From: an uncultured Candidatus Saccharibacteria bacterium
GTDB taxonomy: Bacteria > Patescibacteriota > Minisyncoccia > UBA6257 > 1-14-0-10-44-23
Reading direction: 5' to 3'
Assembly (NCBI GenBank): GCA_964641225.1
Contig: CAZXKC010000002.1
Span: forward strand, 52,893 to 116,892
Length of the DNA: 64,000 nucleotides
The notes below the pieces were generated by a model. It was not told where the DNA came from. It saw nothing but the letters and a program-made list of their open reading frames with translations, and did no database searches. Made by a program: the position numbers and the translations under genes. Shown here piece by piece: positions 4,610 through 63,446 of the stretch (position 1 is the stretch's first letter; the number at the start of each line of letters is the position of its first letter).

Positions 4610-5836
4610 TTATTTCCACAAATTCCAGACGTGAGCGGCTACGTTGACTGGCGTACCTTCAAGCGGGAAGTGGTGTAAATCAATAAATGGCAAAGAATTG
4701 CATTCAATCACGCCCCACTGTTGTCTATTCGGATCTTGCGTGATGTCGGGGATGATAAAATCAAAGCCCATGACCGGAAAATCAACCAGTCGGCCAACTT
4801 CTTCTAATATTTTTTTTGTCTCCGGATGAGTGATTGCGATCTCCTCGGCTTTATATCCGCCATAGCCAATACCAATTTTCTCCATCACATCAATTGTTTT
4901 ACTCTGCGGTAATTTTGTCTCAAGCGTGTAGTTGTTGCGCGCCAAAAAATCCTCAATATACGGTGTTACGACAACCTCTTTTACTTCTGATTTGCGATGC
5001 TTATTTTTAAGTTCGATCAGCTCGCCAATGGTATGTTTACCATCGCCGGTGATGCGCGGTGGGTCGCCGCGCAGAACACCTACGAGCGTTCCGTTTACGA
5101 TCGTAGCACGGTACACGCTCCCAATGAGATGCTCCTCCATCACCAGACGCTCTGCGATCTGTTTAGCTGCCTTATATGCCTTTTTAAGCTGCTTTTCAGT
5201 ATAAATATACGTTGTGGTGTGCCGGCCCCGCGAGCCAAGCGCAGGCTTAATAATGACTGGTTTGCGCAGCATCTTAAAGACGCGCAACATCTCCTTCCAG
5301 GTTGTAAATCCGCCGCCGCGCGCGGCTGGCAGTCCTGCGGCTAGGATTTTTTCTTTGAGTTTAACTTTGTCGTCGAGCCACTGATTTGCGTCGGTATTTA
5401 AATGACGGGGAATTGGCAGGCTTTCAAAAAATATTGTTTCACCGTTAACGATCGCTGCATGAAAATCAGTCGGTTTACCGAACACTAGCATTTGTCTCAT
5501 CGGAATCCCGCGCGCCTGCGCCTCCTGCCAGATTACCTTTGAGCGACTGCTGCGGGATTTAGATATGTCGTCGTTAAAACGAATCACGCCCATTTTTTCA
5601 AAGGCATTGATAATGTAGGGCAGGGCATAGTGAAATGCCGGGTCAAAAAGTTTGCGCAGTCCAATTTTATATGCGAACTGGTCAATCGGATCCATTAACG
5701 CTGAAAAAATCTCATTTGTCTTAGCAAGACTGTGGGGGATTGGATTGTTGCCGCAGTAGTAGCATGGCCTCATGTTTTGAGTATACTTTATCCCGCGATC
5801 TAGACAAATTTGCATCAGCTCACGAAGGATCGCCAC
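4610..5836 (-). CDS. ATP-grasp family ligase (RimK / cyanophycin-synthetase-N-terminal-like); start codon uncertain
   Basis: VIIKPALGSRGRHTTT matches the ATP-grasp phosphate-binding pattern (VVKPxxGSxGxGV) and sits in a C-terminal grasp-like region. The annotated GTG start overlaps RNA-like element A; internal Met codons at 5815 and 5773 are alternative starts. Confidence 0.6.
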   Translation of the reverse strand: MAILRELMQICLDRGIKYTQNMRPCYYCGNNPIPHSLAKTNEIFSALMDPIDQFAYKIGLRKLFDPAFHYALPYIINAFEKMGVIRFNDDISKSRSSRSKVIWQEAQARGIPMRQMLVFGKPTDFHAAIVNGETIFFESLPIPRHLNTDANQWLDDKVKLKEKILAAGLPAARGGGFTTWKEMLRVFKMLRKPVIIKPALGSRGRHTTTYIYTEKQLKKAYKAAKQIAERLVMEEHLIGSVYRATIVNGTLVGVLRGDPPRITGDGKHTIGELIELKNKHRKSEVKEVVVTPYIEDFLARNNYTLETKLPQSKTIDVMEKIGIGYGGYKAEEIAITHPETKKILEEVGRLVDFPVMGFDFIIPDITQDPNRQQWGVIECNSLPFIDLHHFPLEGTPVNVAAHVWNLWK

Positions 5837-6044
5837 AAGGAGTAGGTTTACCTACTTCGAGGATGTCCCGACACAGAGATGATGCAAATTTGCCTGATCC
5901 CTTTGGGTTGCAGCCCGGCTGCCGCCTGATCTCGTTGCTCGCAAAAGCCCATGCTAAAGCATATTGTCTTTTGCGCACGCCGAGCCGGTCAGGCAGCCGG
6001 ATCAGCAACGCGGCGGAAAGATGCTCAGAGCATGGGGCTTAGCC
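5792..6044 (+). ncRNA. GC-rich structured-RNA-like element, copy A, of a two-copy family of unknown identity
   Basis: Shares the core ccgcgatctagacaaa … caaggagtag-hairpin-ctacttcgagga … gggttgc-hairpin … gagcaacgcgg with copy B. Helix sequences differ but remain complementary: A gacaaatttgcatc/gatgcaaatttgcc versus B gacaaaaacccgttag/ctaacgggtttttgtc, and A gtagg-ttta-cctac versus B gtagc-ttcg-gctac. Strand was inferred from the UUCG loop and a conserved G·U pair. Confidence 0.45.
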
Positions 6045-6062
6045 ATATTAAGGTATTGTATA

Positions 6063-6542
6063 ATGAAGCATATGGATGAACAAGAAATTATTTGGTCTTC
6101 GCCGGAATTCCATGTTGTAGAACGGAGCTCAAACTGGTATCTGGCTAGTTTAGTAGTTGCTGCCGCAATTGCTATATTTTGTTTGTTTCAGAAGAATTTT
6201 CTCTTTTTGCTCTTTGTGATCATCGCCGAGACAACGCTGCTTTTTATGACGAAACAAAAGCCGAAACTTTTTGGATATGAAATTACCAGTCAGGGGATTA
6301 CGGTTGATGATGTGCTGGTCTATAAATTCTCGGAAATGAACGGGTTTGCGATCGTTGATGACGGGGTCAGTATGTATGTTGAGCTGGTGATTCGGCCGAT
6401 AAAAAAGCTTGGTCAGTACGGCAAGATTTTATTGCCGCGGGTGATGACCGGTGAGGTGTTTGCAGTGCTTTCGCGATATACCTCGGAATTCAAATATGAG
6501 GAGACAATGACCGAGTCTATGATTAAGAGAATCGGGTTATAG
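6063..6542 (+). CDS. Membrane protein with bacterial PH-like (DUF304/YdbS-like) architecture
   Basis: Two N-terminal TM helices (WYLASLVVAAAIAIFCLF / LFLLFVIIAETTLLF) are followed by a beta-rich domain. ATG at 6063 (MKHMDEQ…) follows an AT-rich stretch. Confidence 0.55.
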   Translation: MKHMDEQEIIWSSPEFHVVERSSNWYLASLVVAAAIAIFCLFQKNFLFLLFVIIAETTLLFMTKQKPKLFGYEITSQGITVDDVLVYKFSEMNGFAIVDDGVSMYVELVIRPIKKLGQYGKILLPRVMTGEVFAVLSRYTSEFKYEETMTESMIKRIGL

Positions 6543-6562
6543 ACGTCAGTAGGTATATAGAT

Positions 6563-7054
6563 ATGCATGTTCAGGAACTGTATTGGAAAGCGCCTGACTT
6601 TCGAAGAGCCAGGAAGCGTGCCACCTGGCACAGCCTTACTATTTTTGTAGCCATTGGACTCGGGATTGTTGCATTCATAGAAAGTAGCATCCCGTTTTTT
6701 ATTGGGATTATTATTGTTGAATTTTTTATTCTGATCGGTTCAAAGCGAGGGCGGGTAATTACGGCGGAGTATAGAGTTGATCGCGTTGGATTATGGTATG
6801 GCTCTGAACTTGTATATCGACGCGAAGAGATTGTGCGTTTTGACATTAGAGATCACGGTGATGCGCTTGACGTTGTGCCGTGGTGTGAATTGATTTTAGC
6901 GGTGCGCGGTCGGCGGCCTAATATTCGGCGCATGCTTATTCCGCACGAGAAACGGAAAGAGCTTCGATCGTATCTTATCGATGCGTGGCAGATTCAGGAA
7001 TTTGAATACCGAATCGGCGCCATTGGGTTTCTTAGGCGCTTACTGGGGTTGTAG
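6563..7054 (+). CDS. Paralogous PH-like (DUF304-type) membrane protein
   Basis: Same architecture as the upstream gene: two TM helices followed by a soluble domain. The two genes are tandem. Confidence 0.5.
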   Translation: MHVQELYWKAPDFRRARKRATWHSLTIFVAIGLGIVAFIESSIPFFIGIIIVEFFILIGSKRGRVITAEYRVDRVGLWYGSELVYRREEIVRFDIRDHGDALDVVPWCELILAVRGRRPNIRRMLIPHEKRKELRSYLIDAWQIQEFEYRIGAIGFLRRLLGL

Positions 7055-7705: not shown

Positions 7706-8284
7706 ATGAAAGAAATTATTGGCGTCATTGCGGTTATTCTAACTTTTGTGGCATATGTTCCGTATTATCGGGACATTCTTAAAGGAAAAACTCATCCACA
7801 CATATATAGTTGGTCGCTATGGGCGTTACTGACAATCTTACTCGTTGCCCTGCAGATTAAAGGTGGTGCTGGTCCTGCTACTTGGGTTACTGCTGCGGCG
7901 GGTCTTTTGTGTGTTGGAGTAGTTTTATTCAGTCTCAAAAGTGGGAAAAAGAACATTACTATATCAGATACGGTTGTAGCTATTCTGTCACTTATCGCAA
8001 TTGGTTTTTGGCTTATTGCTGATCAGCCGATAGTATCTATAACCCTGGTTATTGTTGCTGATATGTTGGCATTCATTCCAACGGTTCGTAAGTCGTACCA
8101 AGATCCTTATTCTGAAACATTATCACTCTATGTTACAAATGCACTACGATTTACTCTTGCACTATTAGCAGTGGAGCATTACACCTATCTCTCCACATCT
8201 TGGATTGTGGCTTGGATAATTGGAAATGCCCTACTCTCGATACTTCTCATCGTGCGACGAATGCAAATCAAGAGAAGTAATTAA
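7706..8284 (+). CDS. Polytopic membrane protein of unknown function
   Basis: 192 aa with about six hydrophobic helices. A clear ORF follows a 370-bp non-coding stretch. Confidence 0.55.
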   Translation: MKEIIGVIAVILTFVAYVPYYRDILKGKTHPHIYSWSLWALLTILLVALQIKGGAGPATWVTAAAGLLCVGVVLFSLKSGKKNITISDTVVAILSLIAIGFWLIADQPIVSITLVIVADMLAFIPTVRKSYQDPYSETLSLYVTNALRFTLALLAVEHYTYLSTSWIVAWIIGNALLSILLIVRRMQIKRSN

Positions 8285-8371
8285 AGACTTTGAATTTTAG
8301 ACAGTCACCTCGGCAGGCAGAACAAGAGCCGGAACACTCGTAAATTGGTTTCTAGCGGCGTACAATAGGGA

Positions 8372-8419
8372 GCACAAAACCAAAACACCTGCGCTAATGC
8401 AGGTGTTTTGGTTTTGTGC
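8372..8419. terminator. Perfect 20-bp-stem hairpin between convergent genes
   Basis: gcacaaaaccaaaacacctg-cgctaatg-caggtgttttggttttgtgc. Confidence 0.5.
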
Positions 8420-8440
8420 TTAATGAGTAACTTAAGGTGA

Positions 8441-8471
8441 GGCCGGGCTTAATCTCCGATTAAGCCCGGCC
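8441..8471. terminator. GC hairpin followed by TTT
   Basis: ggccgggcttaatctccgattaagcccggcc then tttgaatg. Confidence 0.45.
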
Positions 8472-8487
8472 TTTGAATGATGTGTCG

Positions 8488-9123
8488 TCACGAGATAAAG
8501 ACCTCGCGTACGCTTTCTTGCTCATTGTCGTCGAGCAGGCCTCGAATGCTTTCGTAGACGTCGTCCCAGGCTGAACGAAACTCTTCGGGCGTAATTCCGG
8601 CGCGCTTCGAGTCGTACACGCCTATGACATCGCCGTCCTCGGAAATCGATTCGACGAAGGTTGCGCGCTCGACAAGAGCTGCAACTCTGTGATGAGCTGC
8701 GCGAACCCGATCAAGCATCGCTGTGAGTTCTCGATCTGTTCGGTCGCGTCGAAGTCGAGACATGGCGGCGATGAATTTCGGAGGAATATCGCTCGGAACC
8801 TTTCCTTCGATGATCCCAGCCAGGCTTCCATAATAGCGCGCTTCAGCGGCAATCTTTTTCTCTCTGTAATCAACAGAAGCTACCTGCTTGATCTGTACCT
8901 CCGGAGTTGATACTGAGGCGGGCTGCTCCTGAATTTCGGCTTTGACGACCTCTTTCGGGCTTTCTAGATTGCGTGGCCGTGAGGCCGAGCTCGACTTTGC
9001 ATCTGTGCGCACAACCCCGGTCTGCTTGGTGTCCGAGGTCGAATCTACTGGATAGCGGTAGGCGAGTCCGCATACCAAGCCAAACAGGAAGATGAGGCAA
9101 AAACGAACGGATCGACTGAACAT
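8488..9123 (-). CDS. Hypothetical secreted protein on a GC-rich island
   Basis: Signal-peptide-like N-terminus MFSRSVRFCLIFLFGLVCGLA. The ORF is about 57% GC against a 45-50% background. I recognise no motif. Confidence 0.5.
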   Translation of the reverse strand: MFSRSVRFCLIFLFGLVCGLAYRYPVDSTSDTKQTGVVRTDAKSSSASRPRNLESPKEVVKAEIQEQPASVSTPEVQIKQVASVDYREKKIAAEARYYGSLAGIIEGKVPSDIPPKFIAAMSRLRRDRTDRELTAMLDRVRAAHHRVAALVERATFVESISEDGDVIGVYDSKRAGITPEEFRSAWDDVYESIRGLLDDNEQESVREVFIS

Positions 9124-20653: not shown

Positions 20654-21574
20654 ATGGCCAAGATTGATGAGCTTCTTCAGGATTATTTGGATTATTTGAC
20701 TGTCGAGAAGGGGCGCTCGCCAAAGACGAGGCGTAATTACGAGCATTATTTGCGCGTATTTTTTAAGGATGCCGATATCAAGAAAGAAACAGATATTACC
20801 GAGCGCGTAGTTAAATCATTTCGTGTGCGACTTTCAGAGCAGCAGAGCGGTCGTGGTGGCGTGATGAAAAAGGTAACGCAGAATTATTACGTGATCGCGC
20901 TTCGCAGTTTTTTGAAATATCTTGCCAAGCATGATCATAACGTGATTGCCGCCGACAAGATTGAACTACCGAAAATTGCACAGCGCCAGATTGATATTCC
21001 TGAATATAAAGAGTTTGATCGACTGATGAGCGCCCCAGAGGGCGAAAGCCTGCGCGCACTGCGCGATCGCGCCATCTTAGAGACACTATTTTCAACAGGC
21101 CTGCGTGTTTCTGAGTTATGTAACCTGAGTCGCTACCTTGATCTGAGTCGCGGAGAGATAACCGTACGCGGTAAGGGTGAAAAACTGCGCGTGGTGTTTT
21201 TTTCAGATAGCTGTAAGGCAACGATAAAAAAGTATTTAGATGCGCGCGGCGATGCTATGGAGTGGATGTTTGTCAGTCTCACACGGGTTCCGAAGAAATC
21301 GCAGAAGCCACCGAAGGTGATCGGCAAAATAACTCCGCGTTCTGTGCAAAACATGGTGAATTTTTATTCCCGCAAAGCCGGGCTTTCTCAGAAGGTGACG
21401 CCACACAAGCTTCGTCACTTATTTGCCACTGACTTACTGATTAACGGCGCCGACCTGCGTTCCGTTCAAGAACTGCTTGGTCACAGCAATATTTCTACCA
21501 CGCAAATTTATACGCACTTAACTAATAAACAATTAGGGGACGTGCATAAGAAATTCCATGGAAAGCGGACGTAG
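20654..21574 (+). CDS. xerC: XerC/XerD-family tyrosine recombinase
   Basis: N-terminal SAM-like domain (LQDYLDYLTVEKGRSPKTRRNYEHYLRVFF). C-terminal catalytic motifs HKLRHLFATDLL…LLGHSNISTTQIYTHL. Confidence 0.85.
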   Translation: MAKIDELLQDYLDYLTVEKGRSPKTRRNYEHYLRVFFKDADIKKETDITERVVKSFRVRLSEQQSGRGGVMKKVTQNYYVIALRSFLKYLAKHDHNVIAADKIELPKIAQRQIDIPEYKEFDRLMSAPEGESLRALRDRAILETLFSTGLRVSELCNLSRYLDLSRGEITVRGKGEKLRVVFFSDSCKATIKKYLDARGDAMEWMFVSLTRVPKKSQKPPKVIGKITPRSVQNMVNFYSRKAGLSQKVTPHKLRHLFATDLLINGADLRSVQELLGHSNISTTQIYTHLTNKQLGDVHKKFHGKRT

Positions 21575-21610: not shown

Positions 21611-21692
21611 GCTCTCGTGGTGAAATTGGCAGACACGCCACCCTTAGGAGGTGGTGCCGCAAGGCATGGAGGTTCAAGTCCTCCCGAGAGCA
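21611..21692 (+). tRNA. tRNA-Leu (TAG)
   Basis: Acceptor GCTCTCG/CGAGAGC, anticodon stem CCACC/GGTGG with loop CTTAGGA, long variable arm TGCCGCAAGGCA, T-arm GGAGG-TTCAAGT-CCTCC, discriminator A. Confidence 0.85.
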
Positions 21693-21703
21693 CCCTGAAA
21701 ATC

Positions 21704-21743: not shown

Positions 21744-22091
21744 CTAACCTTGTCCGAGCAACTGCGCAACTACGAACGATACTCCTTGTGCCAAGAAGGC
21801 GACGGCGATGGCAACTACTGCGTAGATGATGCGCTGGTGAGCTGCTTTAACTTTTTCTTCGTCACCACCAGAGGTCAGGTAAGCGAAGGCGGCCCAGATG
21901 ATCATCAGTACTGCGACAACGAGTAAAATAGTGAACAACCAGCGGATGACGGTGTCAAAAATACCAAGAACTCCTTCAAAGCTACGAATGCCTGGAGGCG
22001 GAGTCGTTGTCGGGATATCGATAGCCATAGCAGCTAGAGGCATAAAGGCTACGAATGCAATTGCGCTGATCGCGAGAATCTTTTTCTTCAT
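21744..22091 (-). CDS. TrbC/VirB2-like (T4SS-pilin-like) small secreted protein, a singleton copy
   Basis: Signal peptide followed by two TM segments around a short SGG..E loop (…IRWLFTILLVVAVLMIIWAAFAYLTSGGDEEKVKAAHQRIIYAVVAIAVAFL…). The same motif recurs in the 24583-27867 array. Confidence 0.6.
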   Translation of the reverse strand: MKKKILAISAIAFVAFMPLAAMAIDIPTTTPPPGIRSFEGVLGIFDTVIRWLFTILLVVAVLMIIWAAFAYLTSGGDEEKVKAAHQRIIYAVVAIAVAFLAQGVSFVVAQLLGQG

Positions 22092-22210
22092 ACGTTGTTA
22101 TTAATTTGTAAAACTTAATTCGTTAATTCAAGTATAACATATCTCTATGTGTATATAGCGGATTCGGTGGATAACGTACAGTTTGAATAGGGAATTTTTT
22201 GATCATTTGA

Positions 22211-22412
22211 CCTAGAGCCTGCTGAGAAACCCCCTCCGTACCGCGTTGCTCAGCCACAACGGCTGGCAACCCTCTGGGATCCGACAAAAACCCGTTAGCC
22301 CTTTGTCGGCTCGTCCTCGAAGTAGCCGAAGCTACTCCTTGCGGCGAGTCTTCTCGGTCTAACGGGTTTTTGTCTAGATCGCGGTTGAAGGGGGTTTCCC
22401 GGCAGGCTCTAA
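22211..22412 (-). ncRNA. GC-rich structured-RNA-like element, copy B
   Basis: On the minus strand the closing helix is agagcctgc-cggGAAACCCCCT paired with AGGGGGTTTC-tca-gcaggctct. Internal helices are gacaaaaacccgttag/ctaacgggtttttgtc, ggagtagc-UUCG-gctacttc and gttgc-cagcc-gttgt-ggctg-a-gcaac. It aligns to copy A with compensatory substitutions. Confidence 0.45.
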
Positions 22413-22435
22413 ATGCCACTAATATGCGCTAATAC

Positions 22436-22464
22436 TTGACAAAATAGATATAGTATGCTATACT
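22436..22464 (+). promoter_or_regulatory. Consensus sigma70-type promoter upstream of the GC-rich two-gene island
   Basis: TTGACA, then 17 nt (aaatagatatagtatgc), then TATACT (a TATAAT also overlaps at 22464-22469). Confidence 0.55.
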
Positions 22465-22713
22465 ATAATTCGTCAGTCGTGTACCTTGAAAACCTAGGTA
22501 TAGAGCCGTTTTTAGCGGTTTTATGCAATACCTTGCTCTAATTCGTCACGAAATGGGAATCGTATAGCTGATAATGCATAGTCAGCTATACAACTCCCGT
22601 TTCGTGTTAAGTTTGGTTCCTTGTGGAGCCAGCACGGATGGGGCAAGGGCTCTAGTGGCCCGACGCGGGCAAAAGAATGGCCCGCGTTAAGCGGCCATTG
22701 GAGGAGAAAGAAC

Positions 22714-23772
22714 ATGAGTGCAGGACACGGTAGTGGCGGTGGCAAGGGGATGGCGATCTTCGGACTGGTCATCCTGACCACCGTAATCGCCGTGCTCTTC
22801 ATGGTCTTGCCGGAGGAATACCAGCTGCTGATCGGCGCCATCGCGCTTGTCGCAGGGCTCGGACTCACGGCAGTCATCTTCTGTGCGAAGAGCGTTGTCT
22901 TCAACAAGGCAGGGCATGCTCTGATCCAGGAGGAGTTTGGTGATCCCGTAGGAGACGTGAAGAGAAGCCCGGGACCCGCATGGGTTCCGGCATATCGCCG
23001 ACCGATCGTGGTGCACGAGGAGATCAAGACCCTCGATACTACGATCAGGATCGTCACCAGCGGCAGCGCTCAGCCGATTCCCGGACTCTCGATGCTCGCT
23101 AGTCTGCCCGAAGGGCTCGCGATCGAGATTGATGGCTTCATCCGCTATCGGGATTCGGCCACGGTGCTCGACGCCATGGGCAATCCTCAGGTTCTCAGAG
23201 TCAGCAGGCAGAACAGGGAGACTGCGATTCGGCACGCCAGCGAATCGGTGGGCACTATGATCGGCTCCGGATATACGATGGGGGACATCCTCCTGCATCT
23301 TCCGGAGGTCGACAAGATCCACAAGTGCCGACTCGAGCTCTCTCGCATGCCCAATGACGACTCGAGGTTCCTGGATCACTACGGCGTTCGTCGTCCTGTG
23401 CCTCACAAGCTGCCGGACTTCTTCCGTCGTAACCACGCCCGAGTTGACGAGTGGATCGAGCGGTGGGCGGCCACTGAGTCTTCCAGGACCGAAAAGGATG
23501 TCGCGGTCGAGATCATCGAGACCGGAATCCGCAGGGTCAGGCTGCCTCCCCAGATCGACGCTCTCAATCAGCGTAGGGTCTACGGCATCGTCTTCGGCGA
23601 GCTCGTCAAGTCTTACGTTGACGACTACGGAATGACGCCTGCTGAGGCCAAGATCAGCGCTGCTCAAGTGCTGGGGTTCGATGCCCAGACGCGCGAGGTT
23701 CGTTCAACCGGAACTGGCAGGGGTCGTAACATCAACGTGATCGATGGCGGTCACGGCGGTTCGCACCACTAG
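22714..23772 (+). CDS. Hypothetical membrane protein on a GC-rich island; two N-terminal TM helices then a ~280-aa soluble domain, possibly SPFH/band-7-like
   Basis: RBS ggaggagaaagaacATG. Sequence runs MSAGHGSGGGKGMAIFGLVILTTVIAVLFMV…LLIGAIALVAGLGLTAVIF…. GC content is about 60%. The SPFH assignment is tentative. Confidence 0.5.
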   Translation: MSAGHGSGGGKGMAIFGLVILTTVIAVLFMVLPEEYQLLIGAIALVAGLGLTAVIFCAKSVVFNKAGHALIQEEFGDPVGDVKRSPGPAWVPAYRRPIVVHEEIKTLDTTIRIVTSGSAQPIPGLSMLASLPEGLAIEIDGFIRYRDSATVLDAMGNPQVLRVSRQNRETAIRHASESVGTMIGSGYTMGDILLHLPEVDKIHKCRLELSRMPNDDSRFLDHYGVRRPVPHKLPDFFRRNHARVDEWIERWAATESSRTEKDVAVEIIETGIRRVRLPPQIDALNQRRVYGIVFGELVKSYVDDYGMTPAEAKISAAQVLGFDAQTREVRSTGTGRGRNINVIDGGHGGSHH

Positions 23773-23807
23773 CGTAGTTCACTTCACAGAGAAAGGAATT
23801 CGGAAAG

Positions 23808-24407
23808 ATGACTGAAGCACACGCGCCGCATGCTGAAGAAGAGCACGGCCACGACGCTGACGAACCCGTCTTCGAGACGGCTCCTACCTTCTGGGACGAG
23901 CAGAAGAGCTGGCTCGTGCCGGTCCTCGTGATTCTCATCACGCTGGCCTTCGTTGTTCCGATCGTCTTGCTCCTGAAGGCGCATGCGAAGGCGAAGCAGG
24001 AGGCACTCAAGCAGGTGCCCGCGGCCGTCCAGCCGCAGGCGACTCAGCAGTACGGCGTGCCGGTGGCTGCGCCACAGGTCGTCGAGATGCCCCAGGACGA
24101 GGTCTACCCGCGCGATATCGCCGGCGGCAAGACCTGGGAGAAGATCTACGGCGGCACCCGGGCGAAGGTCCGGCGGCCGGCCAACGGGTATGTCCAGTGG
24201 CAGGACGTGCTCATCAGTACAGACGGGAAGAGTTGGCAGAACTTCCCGGACGGTCGTAACAACTACGACCACACGCTCGCCGAGCAGTCCGGAGTCTTCG
24301 ATATCCGGGCCGTCGATGAAACGATTCCGTTCAATCGCGGAATCAGGGTGGTGATCGCCGACCATCCGCTGCCCGATCCTCCCGGTGCGGGAACGATCGT
24401 CAAGTAG
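23808..24407 (+). CDS. Hypothetical single-pass membrane protein on a GC-rich island
   Basis: RBS gaaaggaa. An acidic, His-rich N-terminus precedes a TM helix (WLVPVLVILITLAFVVPIVLLL) and a Q/P-rich extracellular part. It is co-oriented with the upstream gene at a 35-bp gap. Confidence 0.5.
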   Translation: MTEAHAPHAEEEHGHDADEPVFETAPTFWDEQKSWLVPVLVILITLAFVVPIVLLLKAHAKAKQEALKQVPAAVQPQATQQYGVPVAAPQVVEMPQDEVYPRDIAGGKTWEKIYGGTRAKVRRPANGYVQWQDVLISTDGKSWQNFPDGRNNYDHTLAEQSGVFDIRAVDETIPFNRGIRVVIADHPLPDPPGAGTIVK

Positions 24408-24480
24408 GGCAGTTAGTCAGCGTATCGCGAGACACAAGAAAGGAGGCGAAATTAAGCCGTCGTGTCTCGCAGCAAGAAGG

Positions 24481-24513
24481 GCCCCGATGACCGCAAGGTT
24501 GTCGGGGCTTTTT
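24481..24513 (+). terminator. Rho-independent terminator
   Basis: gccccgatgaccgcaaggttgtcggggc followed by ttttt. Confidence 0.6.
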
Positions 24514-24535
24514 CTATTGGAGAGGGAAATAAAAC

Positions 24536-24562
24536 CGGGCGGCCTGAGTAGGCCGCCCGGAA
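24536..24562. terminator. Bidirectional GC hairpin (ccgggcggc…gccgcccgg family)
   Basis: ccgggcggcctgagtaggccgcccgg, with an A/T-rich flank on the minus side, downstream of the pilin-like operon. Confidence 0.5.
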
Positions 24563-24582
24563 AGATCTTTGCCGATCTATAT

Positions 24583-25080
24583 TTAAAACTTGATATTTGG
24601 GTTGAGCTGAATGCTGCCGTACTTTGTGTTGACGTTGATGCTGGCGTTTACATTGCCATTCTGGTTTCCGTTAAGACCATTTTGGCCAACTGCGCTGCTG
24701 CCGTCGCTGACGAGCTGGTATACAACAAATACAATGCCTTTTGAAAGAAGAGCGACGGCAATTGCTACTGCGGCGTAAATGATCATCTTGTGGGCTGAAG
24801 CAACGGCCTCTTCTGCGCCTCCTGAGAACATGTATTTGTAGGCCGCAAAGATGATCCACATCACGGCGAGTACGAGCAGGAGGATAAACATCCAGTTGGC
24901 GATCGTAACGATCAGGCCCTGAATGCCGCTTAAGCCATCACCGCTTTGACCTAAGATTGTGTTTTGCGCGCAGGGGATCGGGCCGCTACAGTCTTGCGTA
25001 ATGTTTTGCTGCGCAAAGGCAACGACGGGCAACAAGAATGTTGCAAGAGAGGCCGCTACAGTTGTAATAAATGTTTTCAT
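24583..25080 (-). CDS. T4SS-pilin-like (TrbC/VirB2-like) protein, array member 5
   Basis: Signal peptide, then …IANWMFILLLVLAVMWIIFAAYKYMFSGGAEEAVASAHKMIIYAAVAIAVALL…, then an N/G-rich tail. Confidence 0.6.
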   Translation of the reverse strand: MKTFITTVAASLATFLLPVVAFAQQNITQDCSGPIPCAQNTILGQSGDGLSGIQGLIVTIANWMFILLLVLAVMWIIFAAYKYMFSGGAEEAVASAHKMIIYAAVAIAVALLSKGIVFVVYQLVSDGSSAVGQNGLNGNQNGNVNASINVNTKYGSIQLNPNIKF

Positions 25081-32755: not shown

Positions 32756-33008
32756 AGTAGACAGTAGTTAGTAGTATAGTAGTCAGCAGATGCAAAAACA
32801 ATGAATCTATTTTAGCAAAAAAAGACGAAAGGCGCAACTTTATTTTTTGACCGGCAGTGAAAATGTGAGCATGATTTTTACGTAGAAAAATCGTTTTTTT
32901 GCTCAGCTTTTCTTATTTATCGACGATACCCGATTTTGACAAAATATATCACTTATGATATATTATTTTCCACTCTGCGCCATGGTGGCGTTGAGTAGGG
33001 AGGTTTTC

Positions 33009-33332
33009 GTGAAAGATCGAAGGGTATGGATTGAGTTGGTCATTCTGGTCGCATGCATCGTCGTTCTGGTGGCCGTGCCGGAGCTGATCAGGTTCCGCCT
33101 ACCGCTGGTATCGGCGGCGCTGGTTGTGGCGCTGATTGTCGGCGTCTACCGGTGTCTCTTCAAGCAGCCGTCCTGTGCGATGCGCGAGCAGACGGCTCGG
33201 TTCGCACGGGGAGAGCTGGGGCATGAGCATTTCGAACACGCCTCATTCCATCTGGGGAGGTGTCAACGTTGCAGTTCTGATTTCGGCGAGATCTCCAAGG
33301 AGAAGATGCACTTCGAAGGGAGTGCATCATGA
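33009..33332 (+). CDS. Hypothetical small membrane protein with a C-terminal CxxC…H-rich segment, on a GC-rich island
   Basis: RBS gggagg, then GTG. Hydrophobic helices VILVACIVVLVAV / ALVVALIVGVY, then …HEHFEHASFHLGRCQRCSS…. Confidence 0.4.
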   Translation: MKDRRVWIELVILVACIVVLVAVPELIRFRLPLVSAALVVALIVGVYRCLFKQPSCAMREQTARFARGELGHEHFEHASFHLGRCQRCSSDFGEISKEKMHFEGSAS

Positions 33333-33742
33333 AGGCGAGCTTGAATCTGTGCACAGTACTGCTTCTGGTGGGCGTGGCAGGTGGGTATGCCATGGGCAGC
33401 CACGACTTCACCCCGCCGGACGCTCAGGCAACGATCACCTCGTTGACTGCCGATCTCAAGGTGCAGAAGGAGCAGGTCGCGTCGCTCACCGCACTGCTGG
33501 CGACCTACCGGAGTCGCGTTGGCTACCTGTGCATCTCGCTCAAGTCGGTTCCTCCGGGGATGAACAAGCTCGATGTCTCTCCCAGGGGTATCTTCGCGGT
33601 CTGCACGCAGGCTCTCGAAGAGACGCGTGAGCCGCGGGCCAAAACCATCGACGTTCTCGAGGTTGACCCCGAAGGCAAGCTCATCGGCATCTATGTGCCG
33701 GGCATGCAGGCGGTGATGATCGGTATACCACCCGGGAAGTAA
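33329..33742 (+). CDS. Hypothetical secreted protein on a GC-rich island
   Basis: Signal peptide MKASLNLCTVLLLVGVAGG. The ATGA overlap with the upstream gene suggests translational coupling. GC content is about 60%. Confidence 0.5.
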   Translation: MKASLNLCTVLLLVGVAGGYAMGSHDFTPPDAQATITSLTADLKVQKEQVASLTALLATYRSRVGYLCISLKSVPPGMNKLDVSPRGIFAVCTQALEETREPRAKTIDVLEVDPEGKLIGIYVPGMQAVMIGIPPGK

Positions 33743-41598: not shown

Positions 41599-41698
41599 TA
41601 TATTGTTGCCTCGCCAGATTGGCGGTTTTAATAAAAAATTGTTAGGGTAAGGATGTCTGCGGGAGGTTGTTCCCGTGGCAGGCAACAAGGAGAGAATC

Positions 41699-42181
41699 AT
41701 GAAGCGACCTTTGTCGAAGGGGATGCGTACGGCGATCATCGGATTGGCGTCGATGTGTATGCTCTTCGGACTCGCACTCGGACTTGCGATCGGGCTCGGT
41801 CATCCGGCGCAGGCGCAGGAGGCGCCGCAGATGGTCCGTGTCGGCACGAAGGTGCCGGACGAGTTCCTTCTCAATCGCCACACTCTCGCGGGGGTCATCG
41901 AAGCGGCTACAAAGAGCAACGAATTCGTGATGTGCTCTATGAGCCCGGGATCGGTGTGGTTCCATGACGGAGAGCTGTATGTCTGGGATGGGCCTGGGAC
42001 GACCGTAGAGCTGGGAGAGACTTTGAGCGTTCCTGTCGAGGTGGGTCCGAAGGGAGAGCTTCAACTCTACATCCGGCGTTCCCGTCCGACGGTCTGGTAT
42101 CGCGACCAGAGTTACAATCCCTTACAGAAGAAGGCCATGAAGGTGACGCAGATCATCGTCGTGGAAGACGGCAGGAAGTAG
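41699..42181 (+). CDS. Hypothetical secreted protein on a GC-rich island
   Basis: RBS aaggagagaatcATG. Signal peptide MKRPLSKGMRTAIIGLASMCMLFGLALGLAIGLGHPAQA. The mature part is beta-rich and matches no motif I recognise. Confidence 0.55.
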   Translation: MKRPLSKGMRTAIIGLASMCMLFGLALGLAIGLGHPAQAQEAPQMVRVGTKVPDEFLLNRHTLAGVIEAATKSNEFVMCSMSPGSVWFHDGELYVWDGPGTTVELGETLSVPVEVGPKGELQLYIRRSRPTVWYRDQSYNPLQKKAMKVTQIIVVEDGRK

Positions 42182-48693: not shown

Positions 48694-49083
48694 ATGCGTA
48701 AGAAGTCGTTGCATGCGTTTGCGGTAGCGGTCGCTATTGCCGCCGGTTCGTCAGAGGCGCTTGCAGAGCGCGATCCGGCAGAAGGTTGGCTCCGAGCAAA
48801 CGGCGTGTCGCATGCCGAAGCTCGGCTGCAGTCGGTGACGTGCGAGGCGGTCGTCAAGTGCGTGCGCAAGCTCTCGGGAAGGTCTCGATTCGAGGAGGCG
48901 GACGAGTTCACGGCGCGTGACCACGAACTGCGCGTGGAGCGGCGCGAGCGCCGTCTTTACGCCAAGCGCTATGCGCACGTCAATCTGAGCAGGTCGCTCG
49001 GAGAGACGACGCTGGCGGAGGTGATCGCCGACCTCAAGCGCAGTGAGCGACCCGTCATCGTTCGACGAGTGCTGGTCGCCTGA
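48694..49083 (+). CDS. Hypothetical secreted Arg/Glu-rich protein on a GC-rich island
   Basis: Signal peptide MRKKSLHAFAVAVAIAAGSSEALA. GC content is about 62%. No known motif. Confidence 0.5.
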   Translation: MRKKSLHAFAVAVAIAAGSSEALAERDPAEGWLRANGVSHAEARLQSVTCEAVVKCVRKLSGRSRFEEADEFTARDHELRVERRERRLYAKRYAHVNLSRSLGETTLAEVIADLKRSERPVIVRRVLVA

Positions 49084-62426: not shown

Positions 62427-63446
62427 GTGACTAGGATCCGTGGCGTGGACTTCGGGCCGGTCTGGGGCGCTTCGGGCGTCCAGAAGTTCTTCGGTGACTC
62501 GTGGCCGCATCATGAGCGCTTCAAGAGGTGGTTCCCCAAGGGCTTTGACATGACGGGCATGACTTTTGTCGCCAAGACCATGACGACAAAGGCGCTCAAG
62601 GGAAACATGCCCAGTGACGACCAGGACAATCCTTACGAGGCAAGGCCCCGGTGCGTCGTCGTCAACCCGCTCTCATTTCTTCGCGGAGTGGCGCTTAACG
62701 CTGTCGGTCTGACAAACCGCGGCGCGCGAGCCCTGTTCGCAGATGGGCGGTGGCATGAGCGGACCGAGCCCTTCTTCATTTCGTTTGCCCCACAGGGCAA
62801 GACGCTGTCGGCGAAGATCGAAGACGCCAGGGAGTTCATTCGTATCTGTCAGTTCTGCCTTCCGTTCCATGTTCCGGCCGGTCTTCAGCTCAACCTCTCT
62901 TGTCCCAACACCGGAGAGAATGTCAGCGACAGCGGACCGCTGGTGAATGAGGCGCTCGCTCTTCTGGACGAGTTCAAGGTTCTTTCGGTTCATCTGCGGA
63001 TCGTCGTGAAGATCAACGTCCTGATGCCTGCAGAGGCGGCGAGGCGAATCTCGCTGCACATTGCTTGTGACGGGCTTTGCATTTCCAACACGATTCCGTG
63101 GGAGGCATTGCCAAGTCTTGGTATCAATCGGTTCCTGCTGTTCGGAACAACAACTTCTCCGCTGCGCAAGCGGGGATTTGAACAGAGCGGTGGACTTTCC
63201 GGAAAACCGCTTCTCCCTCTAGTAGAACGTTGGGTGCGTCATGCGCGCAGCGTCGGCGTCCTCAAACACATCAACGCTGGAGGCGGCATCCTGTCGCCAA
63301 GTGATGTCTACCGCCTCAAGGATGCGGGAGCCGATAGCGTTTCGCTCGGAGTCATCACCATGCTCCGTCCCTGGCGTGTACAGGAAACAATTCGCGCCGC
63401 GCATCAAGTGTTTGATGGCAGTTGTTGGTGTCCCGGTCCGCACTAG
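62427..63446 (+). CDS. Dihydroorotate-dehydrogenase-family (PyrD-like) TIM-barrel flavoenzyme, GC-rich
   Basis: RBS gaggtg, then GTG. DHOD-family motifs NLSCPNTGE, SGGLSGKPLLPL and NAGGGI. GC content is about 60% against the ~47% flanks. Confidence 0.65.
   Translation: MTRIRGVDFGPVWGASGVQKFFGDSWPHHERFKRWFPKGFDMTGMTFVAKTMTTKALKGNMPSDDQDNPYEARPRCVVVNPLSFLRGVALNAVGLTNRGARALFADGRWHERTEPFFISFAPQGKTLSAKIEDAREFIRICQFCLPFHVPAGLQLNLSCPNTGENVSDSGPLVNEALALLDEFKVLSVHLRIVVKINVLMPAEAARRISLHIACDGLCISNTIPWEALPSLGINRFLLFGTTTSPLRKRGFEQSGGLSGKPLLPLVERWVRHARSVGVLKHINAGGGILSPSDVYRLKDAGADSVSLGVITMLRPWRVQETIRAAHQVFDGSCWCPGPH

Follow-up and report, generated by a model that had tools for sequence, protein, structure and literature searches.

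A very divergent SPFH-type operon with a structured leader at a pilin array of Saccharibacteria, probably retained rather than recently acquired

On the forward strand of a 64,000-nt stretch of DNA from an uncultured Candidatus Saccharibacteria bacterium (contig CAZXKC010000002.1; this whole stretch is called the window below), a sigma-70-type promoter at 22436..22464 is followed by a structured leader of ∼245 nt (22471..22713), two open reading frames (ORFs) for putative membrane proteins, and terminal hairpins. ORF1 (22714..23772, 352 aa) and ORF2 (23808..24407, 199 aa, starting 35 nt after ORF1) together appear to constitute a new and very divergent operon of the SPFH/band-7 class, whose unusual aspects are a compositional anomaly that recurs across lineages and a conserved structured leader. 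An earlier interpretation made from the nucleotide sequence alone (the sequence-only reading) had described these features, including three hairpins at the 3′ end, and each is present as described; it had further regarded the stretch as a horizontally acquired island, perhaps host-derived, a view that we revise here.

The operon lies within, or borders on, an array of type IV secretion system (T4SS)-type pilin genes. Upstream lie genes for RmuC, a protein without assignment and a XerC/D-type tyrosine recombinase (20654-21574), followed by tRNA-Leu(tag) (21611-21694) and a reverse-strand gene matching the Pfam family T4SS_pilin (21744-22091); downstream, five further T4SS_pilin-domain genes on the reverse strand begin at 24583 and converge on the operon, with genes for a solute-binding protein and then GyrA beyond them. 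At least four other Saccharibacteria or Patescibacteria genomes hold the module between tRNA-Leu and the same T4SS-pilin array. The first, L002, is a metagenomic contig carrying the ORF1 homologue P0003 and, after it, an ORF2-like gene; the loci beyond L002 came from scans of genome and metagenome collections in which the recombinase served as query, and the module is now known from five genomes and two fragments. Recombinase identity to the window is 88% for both L002 and L014 (a Saccharibacteria metagenome-assembled genome, MAG, and the nearest relative from the genome collections), 65% for the MAG L006 and 57% for the MAG L007 (identical with L023), and the L014 and L002 recombinases are 92% identical to each other. 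The slot is occupied by genes of 610 and 182 aa in L014, of 213, 470 and 243 aa in L006, and of 347 and 195 aa in L007. In all four loci the order is recombinase, tRNA-Leu(tag), two forward-strand genes and the T4SS-pilin array, and the succession of RmuC, unassigned gene and recombinase is a syntenic core kept in all relatives. Flanking genes are 50-88% identical among the loci, whereas the module is far more divergent.

ORF1, whose ATG at 22714 has the ribosome-binding site GGAGGAG 7 nt upstream (22700-22706), has a layout consisting of two predicted N-terminal transmembrane helices (∼14-33 and ∼38-60), an SPFH-like domain with a family-specific insert of ∼60-70 aa, a helical region, and a Gly/His-rich tail; the two hydrophobic helices within residues ∼14-60 would serve as a membrane anchor in front of the domain, and C-terminal helices were predicted at 283-319 only (single-sequence AlphaFold2 model, low confidence). 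The loose resemblance to SPFH/band-7 proteins that the sequence-only reading had suspected is borne out by three concordant lines of evidence. First, the syntenic L007 protein (5808-6851, 347 aa) passes the Pfam Band_7 threshold (E = 7e-12, 46.2 bits). Second, an ORF1-family profile built from ORF1, P0003, the 470-aa L006 protein and P0004, with L007 left out, aligns to the L007 protein in hhalign with a probability of 98.2% (E = 4e-14, 242 columns). Third, P0003 gives a sub-threshold Band_7 match (E = 0.051) that coincides in region and profile positions with the weak match of ORF1 itself. Together, these matches establish SPFH homology and identify ORF1, as judged from its sequence, as a very divergent SPFH/band-7 protein carrying an insert specific to its family. 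A search of the Protein Data Bank (PDB) with the ORF1 family returned a weak match to HflC (E = 0.037, with 7vhp among the returns), and the L007 protein matches the HflK/HflC TIGRFAM models below cut-off, far under the equivalog cut-offs. The distribution of charges in ORF1 (K11 before the first helix, an acidic loop PEEYQ, two lysines after the second helix) would place the SPFH domain in the cytoplasm by the positive-inside rule.

Relatives of ORF1 are few. When ORF1 was searched exhaustively with HMMER against 1.84 billion representative proteins, two were recovered: P0003 (329 aa, 27% identity, E = 1e-16), encoded in the syntenic locus L002, and P0004, a fragment whose 739-bp contig offers no useful context. 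k-mer-prefiltered searches of 5.8 billion proteins with ORF1 or ORF2 returned the query proteins alone. Pairwise similarity between ORF1 homologues falls from 93 bits (window and L002) to 68 bits (L002 and L006) and 44 bits (L002 and L007), roughly following species distance, which fits vertical descent with very fast evolution.

ORF2 appears from its sequence to be a single-pass membrane protein without a known domain: an acidic and His-rich N-terminal stretch precedes the membrane-spanning helix (∼35-57), and a Q/P/A-rich linker connects this helix to a C-terminal domain of ∼100 aa for which beta strands are predicted at low confidence. The second genes of L002, L014, L006 and L007 encode proteins of matching architecture (a charged, often His-rich N-terminus, one helix, a P/Q/A-rich linker, and a C-terminal domain that again has ∼100 aa). 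Members of this family align only weakly (E = 3e-6 for the pairwise comparison of the window and L014 proteins), and a family profile search added one further relative, the fragment P0007; ORF2 found no match in Pfam, NCBIfam, PHROGs, PADLOC or the PDB. The sequence-only reading had called the C-terminal part an ectodomain, which is unproven, and the lysines that follow the transmembrane helix make a cytoplasmic location of the C-terminus more likely in this copy.

The promoter (TTGACA-17-TATACT, extended by a TG at the -10 element; 11 of 12 positions in the promoter scan) recurs nearly unchanged in L014 (11833-11862) and L002 (3614-3643), and the leader that follows can be aligned among the three loci up to the start codon. 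In the window the leader folds at -118 kcal/mol (z-score, z, -10.0): small hairpins lie at its 5′ end, GC-rich ones at its 3′ end, where they reach the ribosome-binding site, and the fold also includes a long hairpin and an enclosing stem. The homologous leaders are also strongly folded (z -11.3 in L014, -8.8 in L002). A consensus from the three-sequence alignment comprises 64 pairs, with 87.8% paired, and 20 of these 64 show double-sided changes, as against 7.9 ± 2.3 in shuffled alignments (0 of 500 reach 20) and 2-7 in slid controls. The long hairpin (22547..22606), an inverted repeat with a conserved base (CACGAAAyrGG / CCyGTTTCGTG) and a covarying distal stem, contributes 24 pairs, of which 9 are compensatory and 95.8% are paired; its G.U pairs lie on the forward strand, consistent with a signal at the RNA and not the DNA level. 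Counterparts occur in L014 (11966-12025), L002 (3732-3809) and L006 (8899-8997), and a motif scan of the window and the related loci did not find the conserved base outside the leader. The annotated GTG start of the 470-aa L006 gene (8992) overlaps the hairpin of that locus, and the true start is probably further downstream.

With Rfam 15, no leader family matched, and the region 22090-24600 contained only sub-threshold microRNA-like hairpin matches; at gathering thresholds, the whole window contained tRNAs only. The leader is thus a candidate new cis-regulatory RNA with three or four examples, and it probably exerts post-transcriptional control, for instance through processing, stability, or the binding of a ligand or protein. 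Like riboswitches, ribosomal-protein leaders and RNase III-processed leaders, it is ∼250-300 nt long, multi-stemmed, conserved, marked by compensatory changes, and ends at the ribosome-binding site; unlike these classes, it has no Rfam match and no ligand or binding protein that can be deduced for it.

Beyond ORF2, the 3′ region folds (z -6.4) into a first hairpin (24427-24470) and an intrinsic terminator, both on the forward strand, the latter consisting of a hairpin (24476-24513) and a U run extending to 24518. A third hairpin in this fold, on the reverse strand (24535..24560; an 11-bp stem with 10 GC pairs and a T run) is the terminator of the convergent pilin array and not part of the operon. 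A sub-threshold Rfam match to the ctRNA_p42d-like hairpin at 24475-24520 (36 bits against a gathering threshold of 50) is read here as a generic terminator shape.

Composition sets the stretch apart from its surroundings, as the sequence-only reading had claimed when it called it an island of about 60% GC. In 200-nt windows, GC content is 0.58-0.70 across ∼22600-24450, against 0.40-0.52 on either side; this is the GC-richest 2-kb window of the 64 kb (0.595; mean 0.487, standard deviation 0.028) and also the most deviant in tetranucleotide distance (z 5.5). The description of an island with its own promoter is, however, inaccurate. GC rises from ∼0.48 to ∼0.60 within the leader (∼22600) rather than at the promoter, and falls back to ∼0.48 after ∼24450; the sharp 5′ boundary thus shifts into the leader, while the promoter, like the 5′ half of the leader, shares the AT-rich composition of the resident genome, and both are kept in relatives. 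In-frame GC content at third codon positions (GC3) is 0.73 in ORF1 and 0.81 in ORF2, against 0.41-0.58 in neighbouring genes, and the order GC3 > GC1 > GC2 in both frames indicates that both are genuinely coding. The long antisense ORF at 22687-23667 shows the opposite order (GC1 0.73 > GC3 0.61) and is an artefact of high GC content, as had been proposed.

The same bias accompanies the module in its relatives. GC3 of the module genes, compared with that of the flanks, is 0.73 and 0.81 against 0.41-0.58 in the window, 0.73 and 0.80 against 0.49-0.72 in L002, 0.79 and 0.74 against 0.49-0.69 in L014, 0.73-0.80 against 0.32-0.45 in L006, and 0.61 and 0.62 against 0.34-0.57 in L007; module values of 0.73-0.81 are thus found in four of the five genomes, over flanking backgrounds that span 0.32-0.72. 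GC2 is nearly equal in module and flanks, so the bias is synonymous and does not stem from amino-acid composition. At four-fold degenerate sites, the recombinase of the window is 27-33% identical to those of L014 or L002, that is, these sites are saturated, which excludes a passive relic of a single old transfer: the GC3 excess left by such a transfer would have decayed, and the bias must be maintained locally or re-imported. We infer that the excess is either maintained, by selection on mRNA structure or codon choice or by GC-biased gene conversion, or renewed by repeated replacement of cassettes. Compared with synonymous-codon shuffles (40 per gene), the ORF1 and ORF2 coding sequences have more stable folds (z -2.4 and -3.4), the values for four neighbouring genes being +1.2 to -1.9; the effect is modest and uncorrected for GC-dependent effects, and offers a weak hint of selection on RNA structure.

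Taken together, the shared slot, promoter, folded leader and GC bias in related Saccharibacteria argue that this is a lineage-conserved SPFH operon with a partner gene and not a recent foreign insert, a reading to which we assign a probability of about 60%. Several observations weigh against it. The Band_7 match of ORF1 itself stays below threshold (PF01145, residues 66-284, E = 0.16, 12.5 bits; gathering score 23.6). A single-sequence AlphaFold2 model of ORF1 has a predicted local distance difference test score (pLDDT) of 42, with helices 9-31 and 34-75 at 77-88 and the rest unusable, and a model of ORF2 on a four-sequence alignment reaches a pLDDT of 43. The partner could not be equated with NfeD: neither ORF2 nor its homologues match the C-terminal OB-fold (oligonucleotide/oligosaccharide-binding fold) family of NfeD (PF01957) in Pfam or NCBIfam, the ORF2-family profile retrieved nothing at E up to 10 among solved NfeD domains in the PDB, and ORF2 has one helix instead of three and lies downstream instead of upstream. 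For the leader, covariation was assessed on three sequences. Relative to the first pilin gene, the module is placed on one side in some loci and on the other side in others, and the first slot gene of L014 (12170-14002, 610 aa, GC3 0.79) has no detectable similarity to ORF1. Given that the L014 and L002 recombinases are so similar, the last of these points implies at least one replacement or radical remodelling, and some turnover at the slot has occurred. The 610-aa L014 membrane protein matches no Pfam family, and no link to the SPFH family was obtained for it; stretches after its second transmembrane hairpin and at ∼470-520 look SPFH-like by eye only.

The main rival explanation holds that the slot is a hot-spot of integration or recombination, refilled again and again from a GC-rich mobile pool circulating among Saccharibacteria, carried perhaps by a phage, an integrative and conjugative element (ICE) or another element, so that the bias would reflect the donors. 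It would account for the absolute GC content of the module, which is 0.58-0.64 in four of five genomes (0.52-0.57 in L007) despite backgrounds of 0.41-0.52, and for the unrelated first gene of L014 beside a recombinase 92% identical to that of L002; the shifting position relative to the first pilin gene, the extra GC3-rich gene of L006, and the tRNA and tyrosine recombinase genes adjoining the slot point in the same direction. Other evidence is harder to reconcile with refilling. The module runs on without a break from an AT-rich promoter and leader that the window, L014 and L002 have all kept, and the similarity of ORF1 homologues (93, 68 and 44 bits) roughly tracks species distance. No meaningful flanking direct repeats or attachment (att)-like sites were found around the module, scans of viral contigs with ORF1 and ORF2 found nothing, and tblastn searches of phages (with both proteins) and of plasmids (with ORF2 only) gave no match. 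The recombinase, moreover, is a syntenic core gene, unlike the integrase of a mobile element. On balance, we regard repeated replacement as unlikely, though it is the explanation that comes closest to the retained operon.

A membrane-acting defence or exclusion function (abortive infection or superinfection exclusion), with the SPFH-like protein as sensor or scaffold, is much less probable. Extreme divergence relative to the flanks, a variable slot beside a tRNA gene and a recombinase, and membrane products are all features that such a module might show, and a strong promoter with a complex leader would suit tight control; but PADLOC and PHROGs contain no match for ORF1, ORF2 or their homologues beyond a single hit without significance (E = 0.024), no effector domain with enzymatic activity could be recognised, and nothing links the module to phages.

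Least probable of all, and largely refuted, is recent acquisition of surface or effector genes with their own promoter from a high-GC donor such as an actinobacterial host, in favour of which stand the strongest compositional deviation in the window, the membrane nature of the products and their orphan status in k-mer searches, and against which stand ORF1 and/or ORF2 homologues with elevated GC in the same slot of L002, L014, L006 and L007, the AT-rich promoter and leader 5′ half conserved in relatives, the lack of matches in phages and (for ORF2 only) plasmids, and an exhaustive ORF1 search that yielded the syntenic P0003 and the context-free P0004 and nothing from Actinobacteria or other phyla. 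The sequence-only reading had itself named close syntenic homologues of equal GC as evidence against acquisition; homologues in the same slot and with the same GC do exist, but they are distant rather than close. With classical islands beside tRNA genes, the module shares atypical GC and tetranucleotide composition, tRNA and tyrosine recombinase neighbours, and orphan membrane proteins. Unlike them, it sits at the same place in relatives behind a conserved resident promoter and leader, has neither flanking repeats nor a detectable donor, and neighbours a recombinase that belongs to the syntenic core. A literature search on Saccharibacteria or Patescibacteria combined with SPFH, stomatin or pilin found nothing relevant, and a paper on genomic islands of Patescibacteria does not treat this locus.

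If the operon has been retained in the lineage, its mode of action may be sketched by analogy with known systems. The strong resident sigma-70 promoter would drive transcription of the folded leader and then of the two co-transcribed genes. A two-helix transmembrane hairpin would anchor ORF1 with its SPFH domain in the cytoplasm, where, as in HflK/C, stomatin/QmcA and flotillins, it might oligomerise into a ring- or cage-like membrane scaffold that corrals or regulates a client. ORF2 could be an obligate partner or client of ORF1, much as NfeD is for the SPFH proteins of other operons. That the module is always found beside the pilin array hints at a possible role in handling these abundant small membrane proteins or the cell surface. 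A fuller version, which we advance tentatively and consider doubtful as a whole, is that the vertically retained operon keeps a locally maintained GC3 excess while its proteins diverge to the limit of detection, and that the leader represents a new class of cis-regulatory RNA that regulates an SPFH scaffold connected with the pilin array; the GC3 excess could then result from structured-mRNA selection working with the leader, or from GC-biased gene conversion at a recombination-prone surface locus.

SPFH families are very divergent and co-evolve with their partners (PMC2636767), and they are also known for genomic variability (PMC13086221). In stomatin-NfeD and flotillin-NfeD operons, an SPFH gene is paired with a partner gene (PMC2636767, PMC4208085); NfeD proteins are ∼140-150 aa long, have three N-terminal hydrophobic stretches and a soluble all-beta C-terminal domain, and are usually encoded upstream of the SPFH gene (PMC2636767). 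The closest known systems are pairs such as QmcA/YbbK-YbbJ, PH1511-PH1510, YuaG(FloT)-YuaF and YqiK-YqiJ, whose SPFH members, like ORF1, combine an N-terminal anchor, an SPFH-type domain and a helical C-terminus, and whose SPFH genes, as presumably here, are co-transcribed with a gene for a small membrane protein with a soluble beta-rich C-terminal domain (predicted in the case of ORF2). The operon differs from them in that ORF1 stays below the Pfam threshold and carries the family-specific insert, and in that ORF2 departs from known SPFH partners in gene order, helix number and the missing NfeD match; a GC3 anomaly, a structured leader and a fixed position at a pilin array have not been described for known SPFH operons. 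HflK/HflC-FtsH (PDB 7vhp), which gives the best though weak sequence matches, likewise contains membrane-anchored SPFH proteins that form large assemblies. In HflK/C, however, each subunit spans the membrane with a single helix and exposes its SPFH domain to the periplasm, and the two form a heteropair with FtsH, whereas ORF1 has a hairpin and probably a cytoplasmic domain, and its locus contains one SPFH gene, with no second paralogue and no adjacent ftsH.

The locus links an orphan family of membrane proteins to the SPFH fold family in Saccharibacteria, in which membrane and surface biology underlies an episymbiotic life; the partner family and the conserved structured leader that it brings to light are open to direct testing. 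It also provides a counter-example to the reading of GC-atypical stretches beside tRNA genes as recent horizontal transfers. Should selection on RNA structure or biased gene conversion prove to keep its GC3 high, the module would be a compact natural system for reduced genomes.

Elsewhere in the window, the similar islands mentioned by the sequence-only reading exist insofar as further GC3-rich stretches encode small transmembrane or signal-peptide proteins (32955-33742, 41675-42181 and 48694-49083). The first encodes two such proteins (GC3 0.68 and 0.78, no Pfam match) directly downstream of a second promoter (32936-32965, TTGACAAAATATATCACTTATGATATATTA) that closely resembles that of ORF1 (TTGACAAAATAGATATAGTATGCTATACTA); the other two (GC3 0.74 and 0.73) encode orphan signal-peptide proteins. 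A fourth GC3-rich ORF (62427-63446, GC3 0.67) does not fit the description, matching dihydroorotate dehydrogenase (DHO_dh, E = 1e-11), and it follows that GC3-rich genes are a recurring class here that is not confined to membrane proteins.

A separate element lies upstream of the operon. A rod-like inverted repeat of ∼200 nt on the forward strand (22213..22411; -121 and -130 kcal/mol, z -11.3 and -11.5) ends 25 nt before the -35 hexamer; L014 and L002 lack it at the corresponding place, making it an insertion relative to both, and it is specific to this genome. A second, diverged copy lies on the reverse strand at 5785-5925, directly 5′ of an ATP-grasp-like gene, so that each copy directly precedes a gene or promoter. 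The copies (∼140-200 nt) share 38 pairs, of which 10 are compensatory and none broken, and have covarying stems with conserved loops or junctions (GGGATC, TCCTCGAAGTAG-N6-CTACTCCTTG, and TTTGTCTAGATCGCGG). The element was compared with miniature inverted-repeat transposable elements (MITEs), which combine terminal inverted repeats with a target-site duplication and numerous near-identical copies: the upstream copy has 22-23-nt terminal inverted repeats that are 91% complementary, with TA flanking both sides; only two copies occur in 64 kb, and they differ by compensatory changes and are not near-identical. A covariance model searched against the window and 343 kb of related loci yielded no additional copy, and nothing corresponding was found in Rfam (including HEARO) or in viral contigs. 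An IscB/TnpB omega-RNA or a retron non-coding RNA was considered and rejected, the neighbours being an ATP-grasp-like gene and the SPFH operon, with no nuclease or reverse transcriptase. The element is probably independent of the operon, although it may influence its promoter.

Three minor observations concern the related loci. L006 alone contains an additional GC3-rich gene (8045-8686, GC3 0.79) for a single-pass membrane protein ahead of the SPFH homologue. In the window, tRNA-Leu(tag) lies on the strand of the recombinase, 37 nt after it, whereas it is opposite to the recombinase in all six related loci (L002, 3490-3574; L014, 11162-11243; L004; L005; L006; L007), which suggests a small local inversion in the window genome. 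Finally, a chance match of a regular expression in L022 revealed a 46-nt sequence, ACGAAATGGATAACAGAGTTACCCATTTCGCATCCTCGCTTGTCGT, in three identical copies spaced 90 bp apart close to the end of the contig (76-301), possibly a tandem or CRISPR-like array.

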